From sequence record LC473039.1: a stretch of DNA of 64,000 nucleotides, one strand, 5' to 3'. The notes beneath the pieces are model-generated. The model was not told the origin of the DNA. It ran no database searches and saw only the letters and a program-made list of their open reading frames with translations. The position numbers and the translations under genes are program-made. The DNA comes from Escherichia phage L27. Shown in pieces: positions 13,064 through 20,427 of this stretch. Every line of letters starts with the position of its first letter. Positions within the stretch are counted from its first letter, which is position 1.

Positions 13064-14479
13064 ATGAGCGAGTTATTTAAACATGCGCACCTTCATGCAG
13101 GTCGAACTGAAAATGGTGCTGTAAACCATACTTCATCAATGTCTGCTCTGGTAGACTTCTACAAAGCCGCTGGCTCAAGCCGTAGCAATGTAGAAATCTT
13201 ACCAGACCTGTTCTACAAAGCTTTGCGTGAGGATGTTGATGTTGCAGTTCGTATTTTACTGCATATGCGAGATGTACGAGAAGGTATGGGTGAGCGTAAA
13301 GCTTTCCGAACTGTTTTACTTCAAGCGATTGAAGATAAGGTTTTAGAACCTACACAGGTTCTTCGCATTATGGATAAGATTGCAGAACTTGGTCGTTTTG
13401 ATGACTTCAAAATCTTCGTAGGTACTCGTTTCGAGACAGATGCCTTCAAACATTTAGAAGCAGCATTACTAGACCCTGCAACAGCAGGTTTAGCAGCTAA
13501 GTGGTTGCCACGAGTAAAACCACGCCACAAACAGTTTGTAAAACGTTTCTGTAAGTTTGCAAACTTAAGCGAGAAGGAGTATCGCACACTGCTATCTGCA
13601 CTGTCTGATACGGTTGAGCAAAAAATCTCTGCTAATGAGTTTGGTAAGATTGACTACAGCAAGATTCCTTCACTCGCTGCTGCACGTTACCAAAAGCTCT
13701 TTAACCGTAAAGATGGAGAGCGTTACAAAGCTTACATCGAATCATTATCAAAGGGTGAGGTTAAGATTAATGCTGGTGCTGTTTACCCATATGATGTGAT
13801 TAAATCTATTAAGTATGGTAATGCAGATGTTGCTAATGAGCAGTGGAAAGCACTTCCAAACTGGATGGCAGAAGGTGAAAACATCTTGTGTATGACTGAT
13901 GTTTCAAGCTCAATGTCTTGGGTGAATCTTGGTTCAATCACTGCCCTTGATATTGGTGTATCACTTGCCTTGTATGTAGCAGAACGCAATACAGGTTGCT
14001 TTAAAGATGAGTTAATGGTCTATTCAACAAACCCTCATTTCATTGAACTGAGTGGTGATTTACGAAACCGTCATCGTCAGGTAATGCGTCATGTTGAATA
14101 TGGTTCAACTAACTTACAAGCAGCTTTTGACCGTATTCTTGAGGTAGGTAAGAGAAACAACTTGACTCAGAAAGATATGCCAAGTAAGCTTATTATCTTC
14201 TCTGATATGGAGTTTAATCAGGTTGATGGTGCAAATGGTCGTACAAACTTTGAAGCAATTCAGAGTAAGTACAAAAAAGCTGGATACGAAATGCCACAAC
14301 TAGTATTCTGGTACTTAGCAAACCGTAATGGTACTTGCGAAGTATCTGTTAAGGATAATGGTGTAGCAATGGTATCAGGGTTCTCTCCAGCCACTTTAAA
14401 AGCTCTGCTTGGTGGTGAGAAGTTTGACCCAATCAGTGTAATGCTCAAAGCGGTAATGATTGACCGTTATATCTGGTAA
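13064..14479 (+). CDS. vWA-domain protein with MIDAS-like motif; candidate Ro60/TROVE-like (or DUF2828-like) RNA-binding protein (471 aa)
   Basis: DxSxS motif (DVSSSMS) about residue 280 followed by vWA-like pattern (IIFSDMEFN, VSGFSP); overall architecture resembles Ro60/Rsr as recalled, not searched. Confidence 0.5.
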   Translation: MSELFKHAHLHAGRTENGAVNHTSSMSALVDFYKAAGSSRSNVEILPDLFYKALREDVDVAVRILLHMRDVREGMGERKAFRTVLLQAIEDKVLEPTQVLRIMDKIAELGRFDDFKIFVGTRFETDAFKHLEAALLDPATAGLAAKWLPRVKPRHKQFVKRFCKFANLSEKEYRTLLSALSDTVEQKISANEFGKIDYSKIPSLAAARYQKLFNRKDGERYKAYIESLSKGEVKINAGAVYPYDVIKSIKYGNADVANEQWKALPNWMAEGENILCMTDVSSSMSWVNLGSITALDIGVSLALYVAERNTGCFKDELMVYSTNPHFIELSGDLRNRHRQVMRHVEYGSTNLQAAFDRILEVGKRNNLTQKDMPSKLIIFSDMEFNQVDGANGRTNFEAIQSKYKKAGYEMPQLVFWYLANRNGTCEVSVKDNGVAMVSGFSPATLKALLGGEKFDPISVMLKAVMIDRYIW

Positions 14480-14644: not shown

Positions 14645-14721
14645 CTCTGTTTAGCTCAGCTTGGTAGAGCGTTCCGTTTGGGGCGGTAAGGCCGGAGGTT
14701 CAAGTCCTCCAACAGAGACCA
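14645..14721 (+). tRNA. tRNA-Pro (anticodon TGG)
   Basis: hand-folded cloverleaf; 7-bp acceptor ctctgtt/aacagag, T-loop ttcaagt, CCA encoded. Confidence 0.7.
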
Positions 14722-14728
14722 AATTAAT

Positions 14729-14806
14729 GTTCCAGTAGACAAAATGGTATAGTCACCACTCTTTCAAAGTGGATATTTGAGGGTTCAAATCCCTTCTGGA
14801 ACGCCA
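14729..14806 (+). tRNA. tRNA-Glu (anticodon TTC)
   Basis: acceptor gttccag/ctggaac, anticodon loop ctttcaa, CCA encoded. Confidence 0.7.
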
Positions 14807-14810
14807 GTTT

Positions 14811-14889
14811 TGACAGAAGACCAATTACAGCAAACTTAATCTTATTCATCTGAAGGTAAATCGGACAAAGAAGAGACTTGGTCTGGTCA
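14811..14889 (+). ncRNA. structured RNA-like element A (Y-RNA-like family)
   Basis: terminal helix tgac/gtca + AGAA/UG internal loop + GACCAA/TTGGTC helix; conserved 'tacagcaa' box. Confidence 0.5.
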
Positions 14890-14898
14890 TTAAGAATT

Positions 14899-14975
14899 GC
14901 GGGTATAGAGAAAGGGCGTCTCACATGTCTCATTAGCATGGTATCGGCAGGTTCGACTCCTGCACCCGCCTCCAA
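14899..14975 (+). tRNA. tRNA-Met-like (anticodon CAT), 1:72 unpaired
   Basis: anticodon loop ctcatta, T-arm gcagg/ttcgact/cctgc, CCA encoded; first acceptor pair mismatched. Confidence 0.6.
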
Positions 14976-14978
14976 ATT

Positions 14979-15049
14979 TACAGAAGACCGTTTACAGCAA
15001 AATTGAATGAAATTTTTAGCGGAAAAATTGAAAGATACGGTCTGGTAAT
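14979..15049 (+). ncRNA. structured RNA-like element B (Y-RNA-like family)
   Basis: terminal helix ttac/gtaa + AGAA/UG loop + GACCGT/ACGGTC helix. Confidence 0.5.
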
Positions 15050-15058
15050 ACTAAACAT

Positions 15059-15132
15059 GGTTAGGAAGCACATAAGGTATGTGCGGTCGCCTGTTAAGCG
15101 AATGGCACAGGGTTCGAATCCCTGACTAACCG
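15059..15132 (+). tRNA. tRNA-Asn (anticodon GTT)
   Basis: T-arm caggg/ttcgaat/ccctg, anticodon loop ctgttaa; CCA not encoded. Confidence 0.65.
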
Positions 15133-15144
15133 CAAAATTTAAAT

Positions 15145-15232
15145 GTGTCGTTATCCCGTAGATGGTAGCGGTGGGGACTGTAAATCCCTTGTCATTGAGA
15201 CTCGGTAGGTTCGACTCCTACACGGCACACCA
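15145..15232 (+). tRNA. tRNA-Tyr (anticodon GTA), long variable arm
   Basis: anticodon stem-loop gggga/ctgtaaa/tccct, T-arm gtagg/ttcgact/cctac, acceptor gtgtcgt/acggcac. Confidence 0.65.
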
Positions 15233-15254
15233 ACACTTAGCGAGATACTTAGTT

Positions 15255-15683
15255 ATGAGAGATGAAGTATACAAATCACAACTTGGTATGAGTTTGGGAA
15301 CTGCACAAAACAGACTAGTAAAAGATTTGCTATTCGATTTTATATGTAAGACAAATCAAAATAGATGTTTTCAGTGCGGAAAAGAAATGACTAGGGATGA
15401 TTTCTCTATCGAGCATAAGATTCCGTGGAGACATAGTGAGAATGCAAAAGAGCTTTTCTTTTCACTAGATAATATTTCTTATAGTCATCTTAAATGTAAC
15501 ATGAAAGCAGCAAGACCAGCACAGATAAGTGAAAGAAAACATAAAACAATTAAACACGGAACTGCGTATAGTTATTTTAAAGGCTGTAGATGCGATGAGT
15601 GTAGGTTGGCTAAGAATGCTGAGAGTAGAAGAAACTATAGTCCAGAAAGACGTAGGAAGAAGTATCTAAGAAATGGCACATGA
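15255..15683 (+). CDS. HNH homing endonuclease (142 aa)
   Basis: CFQCG...SIEHKIPW...N...H..CN HNH motif; basic C-terminus; embedded in tRNA cluster. Confidence 0.75.
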   Translation: MRDEVYKSQLGMSLGTAQNRLVKDLLFDFICKTNQNRCFQCGKEMTRDDFSIEHKIPWRHSENAKELFFSLDNISYSHLKCNMKAARPAQISERKHKTIKHGTAYSYFKGCRCDECRLAKNAESRRNYSPERRRKKYLRNGT

Positions 15684-15687
15684 ATTT

Positions 15688-15763
15688 GGGGTATTAGTTT
15701 AGACGGGTAAAATACGGGATTGTCTCTCCTGAGCCGCGAGTTCGATTCTCGCATACCTCGCCA
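15688..15763 (+). tRNA. tRNA-Asp (anticodon GTC)
   Basis: acceptor ggggtat/atacctc, anticodon loop ttgtctc, CCA encoded. Confidence 0.75.
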
Positions 15764-15821
15764 ATTTTGAGAGGGCTATTTAGCCCCTCCCTTAAAGGGT
15801 TCTTACGAGTATCTTTTAAAG

Positions 15822-15903
15822 GAGCAGAAGACCAAATACAGCAAGAACGTATGAAAATTTCAAGCCAATTTAATTTTGAAAAATTTAAAACTTGGTCTGG
15901 CTC
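15822..15903 (+). ncRNA. structured RNA-like element C (Y-RNA-like family)
   Basis: terminal helix gagc/gctc + AGAA/UG loop + GACCAA/TTGGTC helix. Confidence 0.5.
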
Positions 15904-15910
15904 AACAAAT

Positions 15911-16047
15911 TTACAGAAGACCGTTTACAGCAAAACTTAAACAATCTATTTCTCGGTAAAGAAAAGGCGAAGGTTCGATTCCTTCACTCGGCAGATGTCG
16001 AGTTGGTGTAATGGTAGCACTTAAGATGATAAACAACGGTCTGGTAA
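15911..16047 (+). ncRNA. structured RNA-like element D with circularly permuted tRNA-like module (candidate YrlA-type Y RNA)
   Basis: same terminal helices as A-C; interior has T-arm gaagg/ttcgatt/ccttc, then acceptor-3' actcggc, 4-nt linker, acceptor-5' gtcgagt (7-bp complement) and D-arm gtgt/aatggta/gcac. Confidence 0.5.
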
Positions 16048-16189
16048 TTATCTTTGTAGATAAGTTATTAAGCTTACCTGTGAGTATGCGACCACAAAGG
16101 GTGAAAGGGTAAATTCTAGATTTAAACCCAACAAGGCACATCGCTACAGACCTTAAGCAAGTCTGGGTAGCTTATCTACAAAGATAATT
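16046..16189 (+). ncRNA. structured element F bounded by a 19-bp perfect inverted repeat
   Basis: aattatctttgtagataag (16046-16064) is the exact reverse complement of 16171-16189; about 106-nt interior with internal hairpins. Confidence 0.45.
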
Positions 16190-16193
16190 TAAT

Positions 16194-16269
16194 GGAAGTG
16201 TAGCAGAATGGTGATGCGGTAGACTTTTAATCTGACAGGCGATGGGTTCGAATCCCTCCACTTCTACCA
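16194..16269 (+). tRNA. tRNA-Lys (anticodon TTT), atypical T-stem
   Basis: acceptor ggaagtg/cacttct, anticodon loop cttttaa; T-stem has A.C and U.U mismatches. Confidence 0.55.
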
Positions 16270-16273
16270 AAAT

Positions 16274-16350
16274 GGTTCAGTCGCAGATAAGGTAATGCAA
16301 GGGTCTCATAAGCCCTATGAATGTGGGTTCGATTCCCATCTGAACCTCCA
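16274..16350 (+). tRNA. tRNA-Met or Ile2 (anticodon CAT)
   Basis: acceptor ggttcag/ctgaacc perfect, anticodon loop ctcataa, CCA encoded. Confidence 0.7.
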
Positions 16351-16367
16351 ATTTATAGGTGATACTT

Positions 16368-16853
16368 ATGATTTGTGCCAACAAAGATTGCAGAAATGAA
16401 GCCGTTAAAGGTGGAAAATTTTGCTCACGCTCTTGTTCTGCAAAAGTGAACAACAAGAAACACCCAAAGAGAAGTCAGGAAGGCTCTTGCCATTCATGCG
16501 GAAAGGTAACGCCAAAAGCGAGAAAATACTGTGACGAATGTATTGCAGGTGGAGTCATGAAAAAACATAAGACCCATCATGAAAAAAGCAAAGCCAAATC
16601 ACTGCACGTTAAAAAGTCTCGTGACAGACTGAAGAAGGCTTTAGTTGATTACAAGGGTGGTTGTTGTTCAATTTGTGGTTACAATAGGTGCATAAAGGCT
16701 CTAGAGTTTCACCACTTAGACCCTAAGACAAAAGACTTCACAGTAAGTAAAAAACACTACTCACTGGCTACAATGCAGTCTGAAGTTGATAAGTGTGTCT
16801 TGCTTTGTGCAAATTGCCACAGAGAAGTACACGAAGGGGTAACAATGCTGTGA
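16368..16853 (+). CDS. HNH homing endonuclease (161 aa), Cys-rich N-terminus
   Basis: CSICGYN...LEFHHLDP...CANCHREVH HNH motif; stop codon lies inside the first bases of tRNA-Ile. Confidence 0.75.
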   Translation: MICANKDCRNEAVKGGKFCSRSCSAKVNNKKHPKRSQEGSCHSCGKVTPKARKYCDECIAGGVMKKHKTHHEKSKAKSLHVKKSRDRLKKALVDYKGGCCSICGYNRCIKALEFHHLDPKTKDFTVSKKHYSLATMQSEVDKCVLLCANCHREVHEGVTML

Positions 16854-16922
16854 AAGCACATATGGATGTGCATTCGGCTGATAACCGAAAGGCAGAAGGT
16901 TCAAATCCTTCTCACAGTACCA
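16847..16922 (+). tRNA. tRNA-Ile (anticodon GAT)
   Basis: clean cloverleaf: D-stem gcac/gtgc, anticodon stem ttcgg/ccgaa, T-stem gaagg/ccttc, CCA encoded. Confidence 0.8.
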
Positions 16923-16937
16923 ATTTCAATAAAGTTG

Positions 16938-16966
16938 TTGACATTGAGATGTGACTACTTTATAGT
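16938..16966 (+). promoter_or_regulatory. sigma70-like promoter (TTGACA-17-TATAGT) inside tRNA cluster
   Basis: consensus -35 and good -10 with 17-nt spacer. Confidence 0.65.
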
Positions 16967-17170
16967 AACCTTAGTTTTCGTTGCGTAGCGTCTATTTTGC
17001 AAATTTAAAATAAATGCAAACGACAATGTTTTTCTGGCAGTAGCTTGATAGGCTAAACACCAGTGAGGTCTTCCAATCCCTCATCAAAGAATTTGGCGTA
17101 CTCGCCCACGGTATGATTAATAAGGTGGGCATCTTTAAGGGCTTTCTAAGAGAGTCTTTAAAGATAATTA

Positions 17171-17252
17171 CGGGGCGTATCTCAGCGGTCTTCTAAACCG
17201 CCGTTAACCGAGTAAGTGGAGTATGCGGGTTCGAGTCCTGCCGCCTCGACCA
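17171..17252 (+). tRNA. aberrant tRNA-like gene (possible anticodon TCT), D-arm missing or unrecognisable
   Basis: good T-arm and 7-bp acceptor (cggggcg/cgcctcg) with CCA; stem-loop gcggt/cttctaa/accgc; only about 7 nt where the D-arm should be. Confidence 0.4.
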
Positions 17253-17395
17253 ATTTAGTTAGCAGATTACTTAGACGACCTAAGCGGGTCTTCCTGTAGG
17301 GAGGTGGTCTGTATCTCATGTTTTCCAGAACATGTAAATAATCTGAGAAGGGGCTTTACAGTGTTGAGATAATACGGTAAGCTTCGAATTATAGT

Positions 17396-17478
17396 ATGGG
17401 ACGATGTTAAGACTCTAAGGCATGAGCAACGGCTTCCAACACCGTTTCAAAGGGGTTCAACTCCTCCGTCCCATGCCA
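17396..17478 (+). tRNA. tRNA-Trp-like (anticodon CCA) with about 8-nt insertion before D-stem
   Basis: perfect 7-bp acceptor atgggac/gtcccat, anticodon loop ttccaac, T-loop ttcaact, CCA encoded; expanded D region. Confidence 0.45.
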
Positions 17479-17491
17479 AAGTCTTATTAGG

Positions 17492-17581
17492 GGTAGGTAG
17501 CGGCTAATGGTAGCCAAACAGTCTTGAAAACTGTTGCCACTGTAGAGATACGGTGAGGGTTCGACTCCTTTACTTACCGCC
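17492..17581 (+). tRNA. tRNA-Ser (anticodon TGA), long variable arm
   Basis: anticodon stem acagt/actgt perfect, loop cttgaaa, 20-nt variable arm. Confidence 0.75.
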
Positions 17582-17735
17582 TAATAAGATTTTACACCGT
17601 CCATGCTTGCTCGCATTTTCGGTTTATCCCTCGTGTATTGTCGTACACTGATAAAGCACCTAGTAGGTGTCACGGAGAAGAGATAATATCAAGCTCTCCA
17701 AAGGTTCTAGTCACCGGATTAAACAAGACTATGCA

Positions 17736-17758
17736 AAGACCAAATTAGGTCTTTTTAG
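17736..17758 (+). terminator. terminator-like hairpin with T-run inside tRNA cluster
   Basis: aagacc-aaatta-ggtctt followed by TTTTT. Confidence 0.45.
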
Positions 17759-17835
17759 AGGGCTTCTAAGGTTATTACAGCTTGTTGTGGAACCTTGTTG
17801 CTTAGGTTCTTAGAAGTTCTCTAAAAAGATTTAAT

Positions 17836-17913
17836 GGGAGATTGACGGTAATTGGTAAACCTATCTCGCTTAGAACGAGATGTTTGAGGGTTCGAATCCC
17901 TTGTCTCCTACCA
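17836..17913 (+). tRNA. tRNA with Leu-type anticodon TAG but short variable arm
   Basis: anticodon stem tctcg/cgaga, loop cttagaa, T-arm gaggg/ttcgaat/ccctt, CCA encoded. Confidence 0.55.
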
Positions 17914-17920
17914 AATTAAT

Positions 17921-17996
17921 GCAGGTGTAGCAAAATGGTTATGCGGCTGACTCTTAATCAGTAAGACGATGGGTTCAATTCCCTCCACCTGTACCA
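17921..17996 (+). tRNA. tRNA-Lys (anticodon CTT), atypical T-stem
   Basis: anticodon stem gctga/tcagt, loop ctcttaa; same unusual T-stem as the TTT Lys tRNA. Confidence 0.55.
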
Positions 17997-18002
17997 GACA
18001 TT

Positions 18003-18078
18003 GGGGATGTAGTTTACATGGTTAAAACATAAGTTTTGCAAACTTAAGTACAGGGTTCAATTCCCTGCTTCTCCACCA
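18003..18078 (+). tRNA. tRNA-Ala (anticodon TGC)
   Basis: G3.U70 wobble pair present; D-stem gttt/aaac, anticodon stem taagt/actta perfect. Confidence 0.8.
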
Positions 18079-18084
18079 ATTAGT

Positions 18085-18159
18085 GCATCCATAGTTTAAA
18101 CGGGAAAATTGCAGTCTTCCAAACTGAGGTTGAGGGTTCGATTCCCTCTGGATGCTCCA
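18085..18159 (+). tRNA. tRNA-Gly (anticodon TCC)
   Basis: perfect acceptor gcatcca/tggatgc, T-arm gaggg/ttcgatt/ccctc. Confidence 0.75.
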
Positions 18160-18165
18160 AATAAA

Positions 18166-18242
18166 GCTGCTTTCGTATAATTGGCTATTACACATCCCTT
18201 GTAAGGATGGAAATGCAGGTTCGAGTCCTGTGAGCAGCACCA
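18166..18242 (+). tRNA. tRNA-Thr (anticodon TGT)
   Basis: anticodon stem catcc/ggatg perfect, loop cttgtaa, CCA encoded. Confidence 0.75.
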
Positions 18243-18245
18243 ATT

Positions 18246-18333
18246 CAGAGGTCAAGTGAAAGACCGCTGGTGTCAACTGAAGACCGTAACAAATTCCACG
18301 GAGTTGAGTTAGCGGCACAACTTCAGACCTCTT
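18246..18333 (+). ncRNA. structured RNA-like element E (truncated family member with nested helices)
   Basis: outer helix agaggtc/gacctct; inner mini-element 18275-18307 has caac/gttg + ccgt/acgg helices and 'gaagaccgt' box. Confidence 0.4.
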
Positions 18334-18337
18334 TCAC

Positions 18338-18412
18338 ACTCGCTTAGTTTATATGGTAAAACATCACCCTTACAAGATGAAGAAAAAGGTTCAAGTCCTT
18401 TAGTGAGTACCA
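18338..18412 (+). tRNA. tRNA-Val (anticodon TAC)
   Basis: D-stem gttt/aaac, anticodon loop cttacaa, T-arm aaagg/ttcaagt/ccttt. Confidence 0.7.
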
Positions 18413-18413
18413 T

Positions 18414-18491
18414 GTTCCAGTATCCCAATTGGCAGAGGATGCAAGCTCAAACCTTGTATTAGTGACGGTTCGAATCCGTCTTGGAACACCA
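18414..18491 (+). tRNA. tRNA with Leu-type anticodon CAA but short variable arm
   Basis: anticodon stem gcaag/cttgt, loop ctcaaac, T-arm gacgg/ttcgaat/ccgtc perfect. Confidence 0.55.
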
Positions 18492-18510
18492 ATTTTAAGA
18501 GGCTATTTAG

Positions 18511-19068
18511 ATGAGATATTTGAAGTATGCTTCATGGATTTTCCTAGCTTTACTAGAGCCATTTGCAGCAACCCTAGCAGTCATCTTAGCACCTTTCGTA
18601 GTCCCATTCTACAGTGAGAAGAAAGGGCATCTACCTTTTGGATTCAGATGGATGGAGACCTATGACAACCCGATTGATGGTGATGAAGGCCACGTTAAAA
18701 GATGGGCTAAGATTAGAAAGATTGGTAAGCTGGGTGTCTACATGCAGAGAGTTGGGTGGCTCTGGAGAAACAAAGCTTATAACTTCTCTTACCATGTATT
18801 AGGAAGAGATGTAAAAGATGTTACTAAGTGGAAAGGTAATATCAACGTAAGTTCTAACCCTGAAGATAATCAAACAGGTTATCTCCTAATGTGGAACAGA
18901 AATGCTTGGGGTTTATTTGCTTTTATCCCATCAATTAAAGTCTTTGGTAAACAGTTTTACTGGAGAATTTATATTGGATGGAAACTAAAAAGTGTTGTCC
19001 CAGAAGAAAGAGCATTCTCAAGGGAAAGAGTTATGTTGGCATTCTTTATTCATCCACTGAGAAAGTAA
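18511..19068 (+). CDS. hypothetical membrane protein (185 aa) inside tRNA cluster
   Basis: N-terminal hydrophobic segment (WIFLALLEPFAATLAVILAPFVVPF); ORF between tRNA genes. Confidence 0.55.
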   Translation: MRYLKYASWIFLALLEPFAATLAVILAPFVVPFYSEKKGHLPFGFRWMETYDNPIDGDEGHVKRWAKIRKIGKLGVYMQRVGWLWRNKAYNFSYHVLGRDVKDVTKWKGNINVSSNPEDNQTGYLLMWNRNAWGLFAFIPSIKVFGKQFYWRIYIGWKLKSVVPEERAFSRERVMLAFFIHPLRK

Positions 19069-19076
19069 AGATTTAA

Positions 19077-19152
19077 AGGGGATTAGTTTACAAGGTTAAA
19101 ACCTCGGTCTTTGAAATCGAAGAAGTTGGTTCAATTCCAACATCCCCCGCCA
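19077..19152 (+). tRNA. tRNA-Gln (anticodon TTG), A1.C72 mismatch
   Basis: anticodon loop ctttgaa, T-arm gttgg/ttcaatt/ccaac perfect. Confidence 0.65.
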
Positions 19153-19154
19153 AT

Positions 19155-19233
19155 GCTCCATTACTCCAATTGGCAGAGAGGCCAGACTTAAAATCTGTGT
19201 TATGTATCGGTTCGAATCCGATATGGAGTACCA
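19155..19233 (+). tRNA. tRNA with Leu-type anticodon TAA but short variable arm
   Basis: anticodon loop cttaaaa, T-arm atcgg/ttcgaat/ccgat perfect. Confidence 0.55.
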
Positions 19234-19238
19234 AATTT

Positions 19239-19314
19239 AGCGGTATAGCATAACTGGCAATGCAGCAGTCTCTGAAGCTGTCCTATTAAGGTTCAAATCC
19301 TTATGCCGCTGCCA
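19239..19314 (+). tRNA. tRNA-Gln (anticodon CTG)
   Basis: anticodon stem gcagt/gctgt (two G.U), loop ctctgaa, T-arm taagg/ttcaaat/cctta. Confidence 0.7.
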
Positions 19315-19345
19315 CTTCTAAGGGTTCTTACGAGAGTCCTTAAAT

Positions 19346-19421
19346 GTGGCCTTATCATAAATGGTAATGACCCATGCTGTGAACATGGTCTATACGGGTT
19401 CAAATCCCGTAGGTCACCCCA
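19346..19421 (+). tRNA. tRNA-His (anticodon GTG)
   Basis: D-stem tcat/atga, anticodon stem ccatg/catgg perfect, T-arm acggg/ttcaaat/cccgt perfect. Confidence 0.8.
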
Positions 19422-19426
19422 ATTTA

Positions 19427-19502
19427 TAGTCCAAGTAGCTTATATGGTAAAGCGCGTGTCTGAAAAACATGAGAAGAGGGTTCAAATCCCACTGGACTAC
19501 CA
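19427..19502 (+). tRNA. tRNA-Phe (anticodon GAA), boundaries approximate
   Basis: D-stem gctt/aagc, anticodon loop ctgaaaa; acceptor tagtcca/tggacta. Confidence 0.6.
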
Positions 19503-19518
19503 ATTTCAAAGGTGCTTA

Positions 19519-20253
19519 ATGAAAGAGATGACAGAACAAGGTAAGGAGATTTTTAATCTCTTAAAAACCGGTAAAGGGTTTTCTAACCCACTTATTACTG
19601 GTGCAGCAGTTCTCGGTGGAACCGTAGCTGCCTCTACATCACTTGTAAACTCTATTAGTTCTGTAACAGACCCTACAATGAAGGATAAACTTGTTGCTGC
19701 TGGACTTACAACAGTCCTTCTAAACAGCTTTACAACAAGCCTTACAAGCACTACAGCAACTACTAAGACCCTAACAGACTACGGTCAAAAGTCTATTGAT
19801 GAGTTTTCATCACGTATGCAGGTAGCAAAGGGATACTCCAATGTTATGGGTGCAGCAGGAGAACAAGTTGGTTGTACACCATTCAGTGGTATTATGGGTG
19901 TTGCTACAGAGTATGGTCAAAAAGCTATTGACACGATTAACAGTACACTGGATAGTGTTAATGATGTGTTAAGTGACTTACAAGATGCTATTGATAAGGG
20001 TCTTGATACTGTTTCTGATTTAGCTAACCAAGCTGTAAGTAAAATTAATGAAGGTATTTCAAAGATTACAGCTTATGCAGATGAAGTTGTGCAGATGATT
20101 GAAGAAGAAGCTGCACTTATTGCAGAGTACCTTAAAACGAATATCAATGGGTTCTTAGCAGGTATCTTACCAGACTGGTTTGATGATGCTTGCAAAACTG
20201 GTGTAATTGACACTATTGCAACACCAGAAATGAAGAACGCATTACAGAAATAA
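19519..20253 (+). CDS. hypothetical Ser/Thr-rich protein (about 245 aa) inside tRNA cluster
   Basis: ORF from ATG at 19519; the upstream part of the track ORF overlaps tRNA genes and is discounted. Confidence 0.5.
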   Translation: MKEMTEQGKEIFNLLKTGKGFSNPLITGAAVLGGTVAASTSLVNSISSVTDPTMKDKLVAAGLTTVLLNSFTTSLTSTTATTKTLTDYGQKSIDEFSSRMQVAKGYSNVMGAAGEQVGCTPFSGIMGVATEYGQKAIDTINSTLDSVNDVLSDLQDAIDKGLDTVSDLANQAVSKINEGISKITAYADEVVQMIEEEAALIAEYLKTNINGFLAGILPDWFDDACKTGVIDTIATPEMKNALQK

Positions 20254-20254
20254 T

Positions 20255-20347
20255 GGAAGATTAACCCTAAAAGGTAAGGGAGCAGTTTGCTAAACTGCCA
20301 GTAGCTGAGAAATCGGTGTACCAGTTCAAGTCTGGTATCTTCCTCCA
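20255..20347 (+). tRNA. tRNA-Ser (anticodon GCT), long variable arm
   Basis: perfect acceptor ggaagat/atcttcc, anticodon stem gcagt/actgc, 21-nt variable arm. Confidence 0.8.
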
Positions 20348-20351
20348 ATTT

Positions 20352-20427
20352 GAATCCGTGACAGAAATGGCTATGTGCCTGTCTGCAAAACAGGTTTATA
20401 AGGGTTCGAGTCCCTTCGGATTCTCCA
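20352..20427 (+). tRNA. tRNA-Cys (anticodon GCA)
   Basis: perfect acceptor gaatccg/cggattc, anticodon stem cctgt/acagg. Confidence 0.8.

Follow-up and report, generated by a model that had tools for sequence, protein, structure and literature searches.

Leucine transfer RNAs (tRNAs) of the bacterial type normally carry a long variable arm, and a tRNA gene cluster in Escherichia phage L27 raises the question of what a leucine anticodon means on a tRNA that has no such arm. The window, by which is meant the whole stretch of 64,000 nucleotides (nt) of record LC473039.1 analysed here, contains three genes of this kind. A sequence-only reading of it, made by a model, had left three options for them: unusual class I (type I) leucine tRNAs, tRNAs whose aminoacylation identity differs from their anticodon, or wrong folds. 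The first option accords best with the fold, the leucine identity elements and the relatives of these genes, and we consider it likely that they encode three functional type I leucine tRNAs of a Felix O1-like phage, predicted to be charged by the leucyl-tRNA synthetase (LeuRS) of the host.

Three leucine tRNA genes with short variable regions

When run on the whole window, ARAGORN called 24 tRNAs, of which three are tRNA-Leu (78, 78 and 79 nt including the encoded CCA); no tRNA-Leu other than the UAG, CAA and UAA copies was called in the 64 kb. The Rfam tRNA model RF00005, with a gathering score of 29 bits, identified the same genes, and both programs place them exactly where the sequence-only reading had drawn them:

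17836-17913, + strand: tRNA-Leu(UAG), type I, 78 nt (ARAGORN; Rfam 44.5 bits)
18414-18491, + strand: tRNA-Leu(CAA), type I, 78 nt (ARAGORN; Rfam 44.0 bits)
19155-19233, + strand: tRNA-Leu(UAA), type I, 79 nt (ARAGORN; Rfam 47.5 bits)

In the ARAGORN drawings all three have a 7-base-pair (bp) acceptor stem, A73 and a 5-bp T stem with a UUCGAAU loop. The segments from acceptor stem to CCA are as follows:

tRNA-Leu(UAG): GGGAGAU / U G A / CGG U AAUUGGUAA ACC U / A / UCUCG CUUAGAA CGAGA / UGUUU / GAGGG UUCGAAU CCCUU / GUCUCCU / A / CCA
tRNA-Leu(CAA): GUUCCAG / U A / UCC C AAUUGGCAGA GGA / U / GCAAG CUCAAAC CUUGU / AUUAGU / GACGG UUCGAAU CCGUC / UUGGAAC / A / CCA
tRNA-Leu(UAA): GCUCCAU / U A / CUC C AAUUGGCAGA GAG / G / CCAGA CUUAAAA UCUGU / GUUAUGU / AUCGG UUCGAAU CCGAU / AUGGAGU / A / CCA

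The anticodons are those reported before, in 7-nt loops (CUUAGAA, CUCAAAC and CUUAAAA in the UAG, CAA and UAA copies) that each have U33 and A37. The variable regions likewise bear out the earlier figure of 5-7 nt: they measure 5 nt (UGUUU), 6 nt (AUUAGU) and 7 nt (GUUAUGU), are unpaired and end in U48, and the Rfam alignment places just 1-4 inserted bases there. With 75-76 nt excluding CCA and a short, unpaired variable region of less than ~10 nt (4-5 nt being usual for the class), the three are type I tRNAs; none has the variable arm of more than 10 nt, folded as a stem-loop, that marks bacterial type II tRNALeu. Irregular pairs are a G1.U72 wobble and a C10.U25 mismatch in the UAG copy, in which the connector from position 8 to the D stem is also longer by one base, and a G1.U72 wobble and a C27.U43 mismatch in the UAA copy. 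A standard 4-bp D stem for the UAG copy was considered and rejected, as it would need A.A and C.U or C.C mismatches; the ARAGORN fold, whose D stem has three Watson-Crick pairs with a single additional connector base, recurs in two unrelated viral contigs (L401 and L424).

Four observations weigh against reading these genes as sound leucine tRNAs. Folding of single sequences returns the short-arm cloverleaf for the UAG and CAA copies, with a minimum-energy fold that is not a cloverleaf for the UAA copy; z-scores of -1.4 to -1.8 lend the folds weak support; the D arm of the UAG copy is irregular, with its extra base and C.U mismatch; and some GenBank records label the UAG copy as tRNA-OTHER or as a pseudogene. 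After checking, the fold of the UAA copy is the sole hint that the short arms might be an artefact of misfolding or of misassigned boundaries, with the true genes being type II or pseudogenes. The neighbouring tRNA genes lie only 1-7 nt from the three (for example, a tRNA-Val ends at 18412 and the CAA copy starts at 18414), leaving no room beside genes of 78-79 nt for a missed arm of 10-20 nt. Because single-sequence folding was weak, reliance was placed on comparative evidence. In an alignment of 72 distinct short-arm leucine tRNAs (the three in the window and 69 others), scored against a cloverleaf that the analyst had specified, 98.2% of the cells were paired, as compared to 59% in shuffled sequences and 34-47% with slid partners, and both sides vary in 19 of the 20 pairs. 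ARAGORN, Rfam (44-47.5 bits) and covariation thus agree on the cloverleaf, and the notion that the folds are wrong is refuted; we give the artefact a negligible chance.

The 2.2-kb stretch around these genes is 97-98% identical to many Felix O1-like phages, such as Salmonella phage SeKF_63 and Escherichia phage VpaE1, and is matched by 257 phage records; the relatives that were fetched are classified as Felixounavirus, subfamily Ounavirinae. By these sequence matches the window is assigned to Felixounavirus, the Felix O1-like phages. Hundreds of GenBank records already carry the three genes under a tRNA-Leu label. Of the 291 phage records that match the CAA gene, 248 have it at 95% identity or more, spanning Felixounavirus, Mooglevirus and Suspvirus; copies with 100% identity are found in records of all three genera, and also in Citrobacter phage Moogle as well as the Shigella phages Sf13 and Sf19. 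Three type I leucine tRNAs (CAA, AAG and UAA) are present in Erwinia phage phiEa21-4 (Kolesnikvirus); they measure 74-75 nt excluding CCA, their 5-nt variable regions end in U, and they have A73 and the D arm seen in the window, with different stem sequences. The anticodon stem of the UAG gene shows compensatory changes in Salmonella phage Si3 and in the IMG/VR contigs L393 and L422, from UCUCG/CGAGA to CCUCG/CGAGG and CCAUC/GUUGG, with the remainder of the gene unchanged.

Phage Si3 also carries a chimeric tRNA-Leu(UAA) (L008, 5001-5079), identical to the CAA gene in its 5' part up to AAUUGGCAGAG and to the UAA gene in the rest, with one mismatch and two wobbles in the acceptor stem. The chimera points to a deletion by recombination between the CAA and UAA paralogues, with loss of the DUF7338 open reading frame (ORF) and of tRNA-Gln(UUG).

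Leucine identity and predicted charging by the host synthetase

The three phage tRNAs were aligned manually with those encoded by leuV, leuZ, leuX, leuW and leuU of E. coli K-12. The five host genes are 85-87 nt long, with a stem-loop variable arm of 13-15 nt, and their D arms share the consensus GYG R AAUYGGUAGA CRC, a 3-bp stem in which position 13 stands opposite A22. The D arms of the CAA and UAA copies, NNN C AAUUGGCAGA NNN, have the same 3-bp stem and equal spacing on either side of G18G19. The leucine-type D-arm element (G18G19 at the leucine position, A20a and a 3-bp D stem), with the loop AAUUGGYARA, is found in all three; the UAG copy has it in the form AAUUGGUAAA, together with the extra base before the stem and the C.U mismatch. 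U8, A14, A15, A20a, U48 (the last base of the variable region) and A73, which directly precedes the encoded CCA, are likewise present in all three, and with them the U8-A14 pair and the A15-U48 Levitt pair. Leucine identity in E. coli needs A73, A15-U48, G18G19 and A20a, the anticodon and the long arm not being required for it (PMC9976931, Giege and Eriani 2023). Dependence of E. coli LeuRS on A73, A14, A15-U48, G18G19 with U55/C56, and A20a has been reported (PMC9976931; PMC6614811), and E. coli tRNALeu variants without the long arm remain active (PMC9976931). As judged by this alignment, the phage tRNAs retain every sequence element reported as needed, and lack just the arm that is reported to be dispensable.

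An amino acid identity that differs from the anticodon, the second of the earlier options, is unlikely on these grounds, since the leucine set is present and the determinants of other synthetases are absent. The 3-70 pairs of the UAG, CAA and UAA copies are G-C, U-A and U-A, none of them the G3:U70 of alanine tRNAs. Serine and tyrosine identity would involve a long arm, with G73 for serine and U35 for tyrosine; the phage tRNAs have no long arm, and have A73 and A35. The base after A35 is G or A, and not the C36 expected for valyl-tRNA synthetase (ValRS). The isotype models of tRNAscan-SE point the same way, giving leucine the top score for the three leucine tRNAs with the same anticodons in phage Sf14 (PMC12482277), a Moogle-like phage of the same subfamily as the window phage.

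Differences from the host tRNAs are found at a few positions. Position 13 is C or U in the phage tRNAs and G or A in those of the host. The G1.U72 wobble, present in two of the three phage copies (UAG and UAA), also occurs in 41 of 106 distinct viral type I leucine tRNAs among the matches listed in the first IMG/VR scan described below, whereas all five K-12 tRNALeu have G1-C72. Position 37 of the UAG copy is A (CUUAGAA, 17868-17874) and that of the host leuW tRNA is G (UUUAGGU); among the same listed matches it is A in 63 and G in 41. As G37 of leuW is the m1G37 modification site, the phage tRNA-Leu(UAG) would lack this modification. The UAA gene had no match in 5,426 complete E. coli genomes.

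In the proposed mechanism, the three leucine tRNAs would be transcribed from the phage tRNA cluster and charged with leucine by the LeuRS of the host, E. coli or Salmonella. This enzyme would recognise A73 together with the form of the tRNA elbow and core (U8-A14, A15-U48, where G18G19 lie, and A20a), and neither the anticodon nor the long arm; the arm, which bacterial LeuRS does not require, could be lost for this reason. The UAA and CAA anticodons would decode UUA/UUG, and the UAG anticodon CUA/CUG and possibly CUU, in which case the phage tRNAs would supplement the minor host isoacceptors encoded by the single-copy genes leuZ, leuX and leuW. We infer both the charging by host LeuRS and the action in translation from the conserved features of the genes and from the codon usage of the phage. 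The phage has a GC content of 39%, and leucine codon shares in the 44 long ORFs of the window are TTA 27.6%, TTG 13.8%, CTT 28.3%, CTA 10.4%, CTG 13.8% and CTC 6.0%; the codons ascribed to the three tRNAs are most of the leucine codons of the genome. In E. coli, CUG accounts for about half of the leucine codons, and UUR and CUA are read by the minor isoacceptors from leuZ, leuX and leuW, whose three anticodons are the same as those of the phage set (UAA, CAA and UAG).

The six largest of the window's remaining ORFs (450-786 amino acids (aa)) gave no match to a synthetase family; the window covers ~64 of the ~88 kb of the genome. Of the other three ORFs of more than 450 aa, one encodes the DUF2828 protein and two align with the terminase and portal genes of relatives. 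With no synthetase match in those six ORFs, the charging would have to be done by the host LeuRS.

The published data on this enzyme conflict when applied to the phage tRNAs by analogy: armless E. coli constructs are active (PMC9976931), and the type I tRNALeu(CAA) of Streptomyces coelicolor was not leucylated by E. coli LeuRS (PMC6614811, Fan et al. 2019). The latter result is the only direct experiment and, as far as the analogy holds, tells against charging by the host, as does the description of E. coli LeuRS as an enzyme that charges only type II tRNALeu and whose leucine-specific domain favours large variable loops (PMC6614811). However, the Streptomyces tRNA has C48, versus U48 in the phage tRNAs, A15-U48 being a pair on which E. 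coli LeuRS is reported to depend, and the failure may for this reason not transfer to them. A sceptical reading of the same experiment would be that host LeuRS charges the phage tRNAs inefficiently, and that these are not ordinary elongators but decoys, regulators, relics or substrates of another synthetase; the non-canonical D arm of the UAG copy and its tRNA-OTHER label in some records would suit such a reading, and an aberrant tRNA-like gene in the same cluster (17171-17252) indicates that not every member need function. We hold this to be improbable. In all three genes the 7-nt anticodon loop is intact, U33 is followed at position 37 by a purine, and A73 and an encoded CCA are present; their stems have evolved by compensatory changes across genera; their anticodons fit the leucine codons most used by the phage; and the elements of other synthetases (G3:U70, the long arm, and C36 after A35 for ValRS) are absent. 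Moreover, all 106 relatives among the matches listed have U48 and A73, two bases that only leucylation and core folding require. Charging by the host LeuRS remains the reading we prefer.

Arm loss confined to leucine and its spread among phages

Two patterns were used to scan IMG/VR for similar genes. The first, combining a leucine-type D loop, a leucine-type anticodon and a T loop at type I spacing, matched at least 120 loci, and 123 of the 124 matched tRNAs among the matches listed are tRNA-Leu of 73-79 nt. In the 106 distinct viral type I leucine tRNAs among them, U8, U48 and A73 are invariant, none of which was fixed by the search pattern. The second, based on the D-loop variant AAUUGGUAAA of the UAG copy, also matched at least 120 loci, with 117 of 118 tRNAs among the matches listed being short tRNA-Leu; this variant, UGA plus a 3-bp stem, is the one that occurs in the unrelated contigs L401 and L424. 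Position 13 differs between the two forms among the matches listed: C stands there in 93 of the 106 viral type I sequences and in all 91 type I leucine tRNAs from GTDB, and the 96 viral type II leucine tRNAs that share the D loop all have G or A. Two explanations offer themselves: the short-arm form is for the most part a single lineage, or C13 and the short variable region are structurally coupled.

Short leucine tRNAs in cultured phages include the following (lengths without CCA):

Lactobacillus phage LP65: three short leucine tRNAs, 75 nt
Prochlorococcus phage P-SSM7: one short leucine tRNA, 73 nt
Acinetobacter phage Acibel004: two short leucine tRNAs, 74 nt
Vibrio phage VspSw_1 (a T5 relative): two short leucine tRNAs, 74 nt
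crAss-like phage cr126_1 (Bacteroidota-infecting): one short leucine tRNA of 77 nt and one long of 88 nt

Many mycobacteriophages, as well as some phages of Streptomyces and Gordonia, are candidates for the same form on the strength of contiguous BLAST matches that carry a tRNA-Leu annotation. A scan that accepted both arm lengths also found at least 120 viral loci. Of the 120 listed, 16 have the short arm (13%), and in loci with at least five tRNAs the short form makes up 12 of 64 pattern-matching leucine genes and 23 of 108 of all leucine genes (~20%), all of these being rough fractions, as the pattern fixes one D-loop motif, the counts cover the matches listed, and the 16 re-used loci are taken to be L009-L024, of which L009-L016 are among the matches listed.

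A scan of GTDB with the type-I-only pattern likewise matched at least 120 loci. Most of the matches listed are from Actinomycetota, including Nocardia, Mycobacterium, Rhodococcus, Gordonia, Corynebacterium, Bifidobacterium and Arthrobacter; the leucine gene is the sole tRNA within 8 kb in 95 of the 120 loci listed, and the anticodons among the matches listed are 61 UAA, 28 CAA and 20 UAG. Short-arm tRNALeu is frequent in phages and in Actinomycetota, with lone chromosomal copies common in the latter, and a type I tRNALeu has been characterised in Streptomyces coelicolor (PMC6614811). Thus, while the class I option offered by the sequence-only reading stands, the word "unusual" attached to it goes too far. 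The phage CAA and UAA copies share their architecture, C13 and the AAUUGGCAGA D loop with the actinobacterial type I lineage and differ from it in gene context and host phylum, a resemblance in which ~75 nt cannot separate common descent from convergence. About a dozen of the GTDB loci listed lie in arrays of 7-26 tRNAs, e.g., in Cylindrospermum, Asanoa, Acidobacteriota and Rhodocyclaceae. The dense arrays with a type I tRNALeu (17-26 tRNAs within 8 kb: Asanoa L240, the Acidobacteriota metagenome-assembled genome (MAG) L242, Cylindrospermum L292, the Rhodocyclaceae MAG L296, and the loci L316 and L318) may be phage-derived or mobile.

The loss of the arm is confined to leucine. In the window, the other tRNAs of the long-arm families serve as internal comparators:

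15145-15232, + strand: tRNA-Tyr(GUA), 88 nt, long variable arm (ARAGORN)
17492-17581, + strand: tRNA-Ser(UGA), 90 nt, long variable arm (ARAGORN; 17-nt insertion in the variable region of the Rfam alignment)
20255-20347, + strand: tRNA-Ser(GCU), 93 nt, long variable arm (ARAGORN; Rfam)

It had been stated earlier that the cluster has no long-arm tRNA-Leu although tRNA-Ser and tRNA-Tyr are long-armed, and ARAGORN agrees. The same isotype pattern is seen across the 120 viral loci listed with a short leucine tRNA (lengths without CCA), in which 173 of 195 tRNA-Leu are short, whereas all 92 tRNA-Ser and 37 of 41 tRNA-Tyr have at least 80 nt, and the other four tRNA-Tyr have 79 nt. Bacterial tyrosyl-tRNA synthetase (TyrRS) contacts the long arm. 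For seryl-tRNA synthetase (SerRS) the long arm is the main determinant (PMC9976931). An arm loss limited to leucine is the pattern that these identity rules predict, since SerRS and TyrRS use the arm and bacterial LeuRS does not, and we propose that, of the three tRNA families with a long arm, leucine alone is able to lose it.

Why the arm was lost is a separate matter, for which neutral or streamlining loss is the simplest reading. The short arm could alternatively be an adaptation against tRNA-targeting nucleases, whether encoded by the host or encoded by a phage and aimed at the tRNALeu of the host. This would leave the three as leucine tRNAs and can coexist with charging by the host LeuRS. 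Anti-phage effectors cut tRNAs at long variable arms: retron-Eco7 and Septu cleave tRNATyr in its variable loop, and the tRNATyr of T5 escapes retron-Eco7 by having a different loop (PMC13096335). An armless tRNALeu would escape an analogous nuclease. About a fifth of the leucine tRNAs in tRNA-rich viral loci are short by the counts given above, and the short form occurs in phages of Lactobacillus, Acinetobacter, Vibrio, Bacteroidota, Prochlorococcus and enterobacteria, host phyla that are absent among the GTDB matches listed. Anticodon loops of the phage tRNAs differ from those of the host as well, A37 of the UAG copy versus host G37 being an example (PMC12482277). Against this, the literature searched revealed no nuclease aimed at the variable arm of tRNALeu, and the same phages keep the long arms of their serine and tyrosine tRNAs, which are still exposed. 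The lone chromosomal type I tRNALeu genes common in Actinomycetota indicate that the form exists outside a phage-defence setting, and phage T5 encodes a type II tRNALeu. The tRNALeu of phage T4 is also type II. On balance we view an anti-nuclease adaptation as possible though rather unlikely. Still more doubtful is the broader proposal that armless leucine tRNAs are a widespread phage strategy, being charged efficiently by a supposedly type II-specific LeuRS and selected for their invisibility to arm-cutting nucleases of the retron-Eco7/Septu kind or of phage host-shutoff systems; if this were true, the phage would keep translating leucine codons while the tRNALeu of the host is destroyed.

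The surrounding tRNA cluster and the closest known systems

The three genes form part of a larger array that is syntenic with that in Felixounavirus records:

14645-20427, + strand: tRNA gene cluster with the three leucine genes (ARAGORN: 24 tRNAs, all on the + strand, with small ORFs interspersed)

A further tRNA-like gene at 17171-17252 (+ strand) was called by Rfam at 31.7 bits, with no call by ARAGORN. Its parts are an acceptor stem of 7 bp, a UCU (Arg) anticodon arm, a T arm of normal form, discriminator A and CCA; it lacks a D arm (UCUCA stands in its place), with 23 nt between the anticodon and T arms, and its fold z-score is 0.04. The identical sequence is found in Si3 and in IMG/VR contig L381, and in NBSal004 the anticodon stem differs by a compensatory change (GCGGU/ACCGC to GCUGU/ACAGC). 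A canonical tRNA-Arg(UCU) occurs in phiEa21-4 and in the Felix-like contigs L393 and L422, where it is followed by the same flank as the 17171-17252 gene. This gene is either a pseudogene or a rearranged tRNA.

Directly upstream of the cluster, a 471-aa ORF (13064-14479, + strand) matches DUF2828 (1e-28) and DUF7788 (2e-43); the Si3 gene at this position is annotated as "RNA-binding protein". This ORF may be related to the TROVE/Ro60-type RNA-binding proteins, and its position adjoining 24 tRNA genes is perhaps no coincidence. Within the cluster, the ORF at 15162-15683 (+ strand) has a borderline match to an HNH endonuclease (21.1 bits, cut-off 21.4) and, as listed, overlaps the tRNA-Tyr gene, and that at 18511-19068 (+ strand) encodes a DUF7338 protein (3e-61) annotated in relatives as a putative membrane protein. 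In NBSal004 (L001, 4704-4776) and some other relatives, a tRNA-Arg lies between tRNA-Leu(CAA) and the DUF7338 ORF; this tRNA-Arg is absent from the window (18492-18510). The content of the cluster is polymorphic among phages that are 97-98% identical.

Type I tRNALeu is a published class, and the phage genes are an under-noticed variant of it and not a new kind of molecule. Related work found in the literature searched comprises the Streptomyces study, a remark on a mycobacterial array, and a codon-usage study of Sf14, in which the word "variable" is absent (PMC12482277); in this literature there was no discussion of phages commonly encoding type I tRNALeu, a whole enterobacterial phage subfamily among them, of arm loss confined to leucine, or of the tension with the claim that E. 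coli LeuRS is type II-specific. The enterobacterial phage subfamily Ounavirinae encodes only short-arm leucine tRNAs, and phages of Firmicutes, Proteobacteria, Cyanobacteria and Bacteroidota have the form as well. The leucine-only loss is a natural experiment that mirrors the identity rules of the synthetases, and the genes are ready substrates for asking whether E. coli LeuRS needs the arm, what purpose the long arm serves, and whether its absence protects against tRNA-targeting defences. They are of moderate interest, chiefly as a direct biochemical test, and are relevant to annotation as well, some pipelines labelling such genes tRNA-OTHER or pseudogene.

Several known tRNAs invite comparison. 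The type I tRNALeu(CAA) of Streptomyces coelicolor (PMC6614811) resembles the phage tRNAs in its short variable loop (5 nt in its case), A73, U8-A14 and canonical cloverleaf, and is leucylated by its own bacterial LeuRS (PMC6614811). In Streptomyces, however, it coexists with four type II isoacceptors and a LeuRS with an adapted leucine-specific domain, whereas all the leucine tRNAs of the phage are type I and its host has type II only, as read from the five tRNALeu of K-12. A mycobacterial tRNA array contains a tRNALeu(TAG) whose variable loop is short (PMC6582537), likewise a short-arm leucine tRNA in a mobile tRNA cluster, beside type II host copies; unlike the phage genes, it lies in a bacterial chromosome, in a phylum with native type I tRNALeu, and is mentioned there in a passing remark only. 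Animal mitochondrial tRNALeu, such as human mt-tRNALeu(UUR), has the type I shape, with A73 and A14 as its determinants (PMC9976931), but its D and T loops are degenerate and it is served by a mitochondrial LeuRS of its own, where the phage tRNAs have canonical G18G19 and UUCGAAU loops. The tRNALeu of phage T5 (UAG, 85 nt) is, like those in the window, a phage-borne leucine isoacceptor in the tRNA cluster of an E. coli phage, yet it keeps the long arm; with type I tRNALeu in VspSw_1, a Vibrio phage of the T5 family, both forms are found within one phage family. The type II tRNAs encoded by E. coli leuZ (UAA), leuX (CAA) and leuW (UAG) share with the phage tRNAs the anticodons, the D-arm design (3-bp stem and AAUYGGUAGA loop), A73, U8-A14 and A15/U48, and differ in having a stem-loop arm of 13-15 nt in place of 5-7 unpaired nt. 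Finally, engineered armless E. coli tRNALeu (Larkin et al. 2002; Asahara et al. 1993, 1998; via PMC9976931) is leucylated if A73 and the tertiary contacts of the D loop with the T loop are kept. The phage tRNAs retain this same set, and would be the natural counterparts of these laboratory-made constructs.

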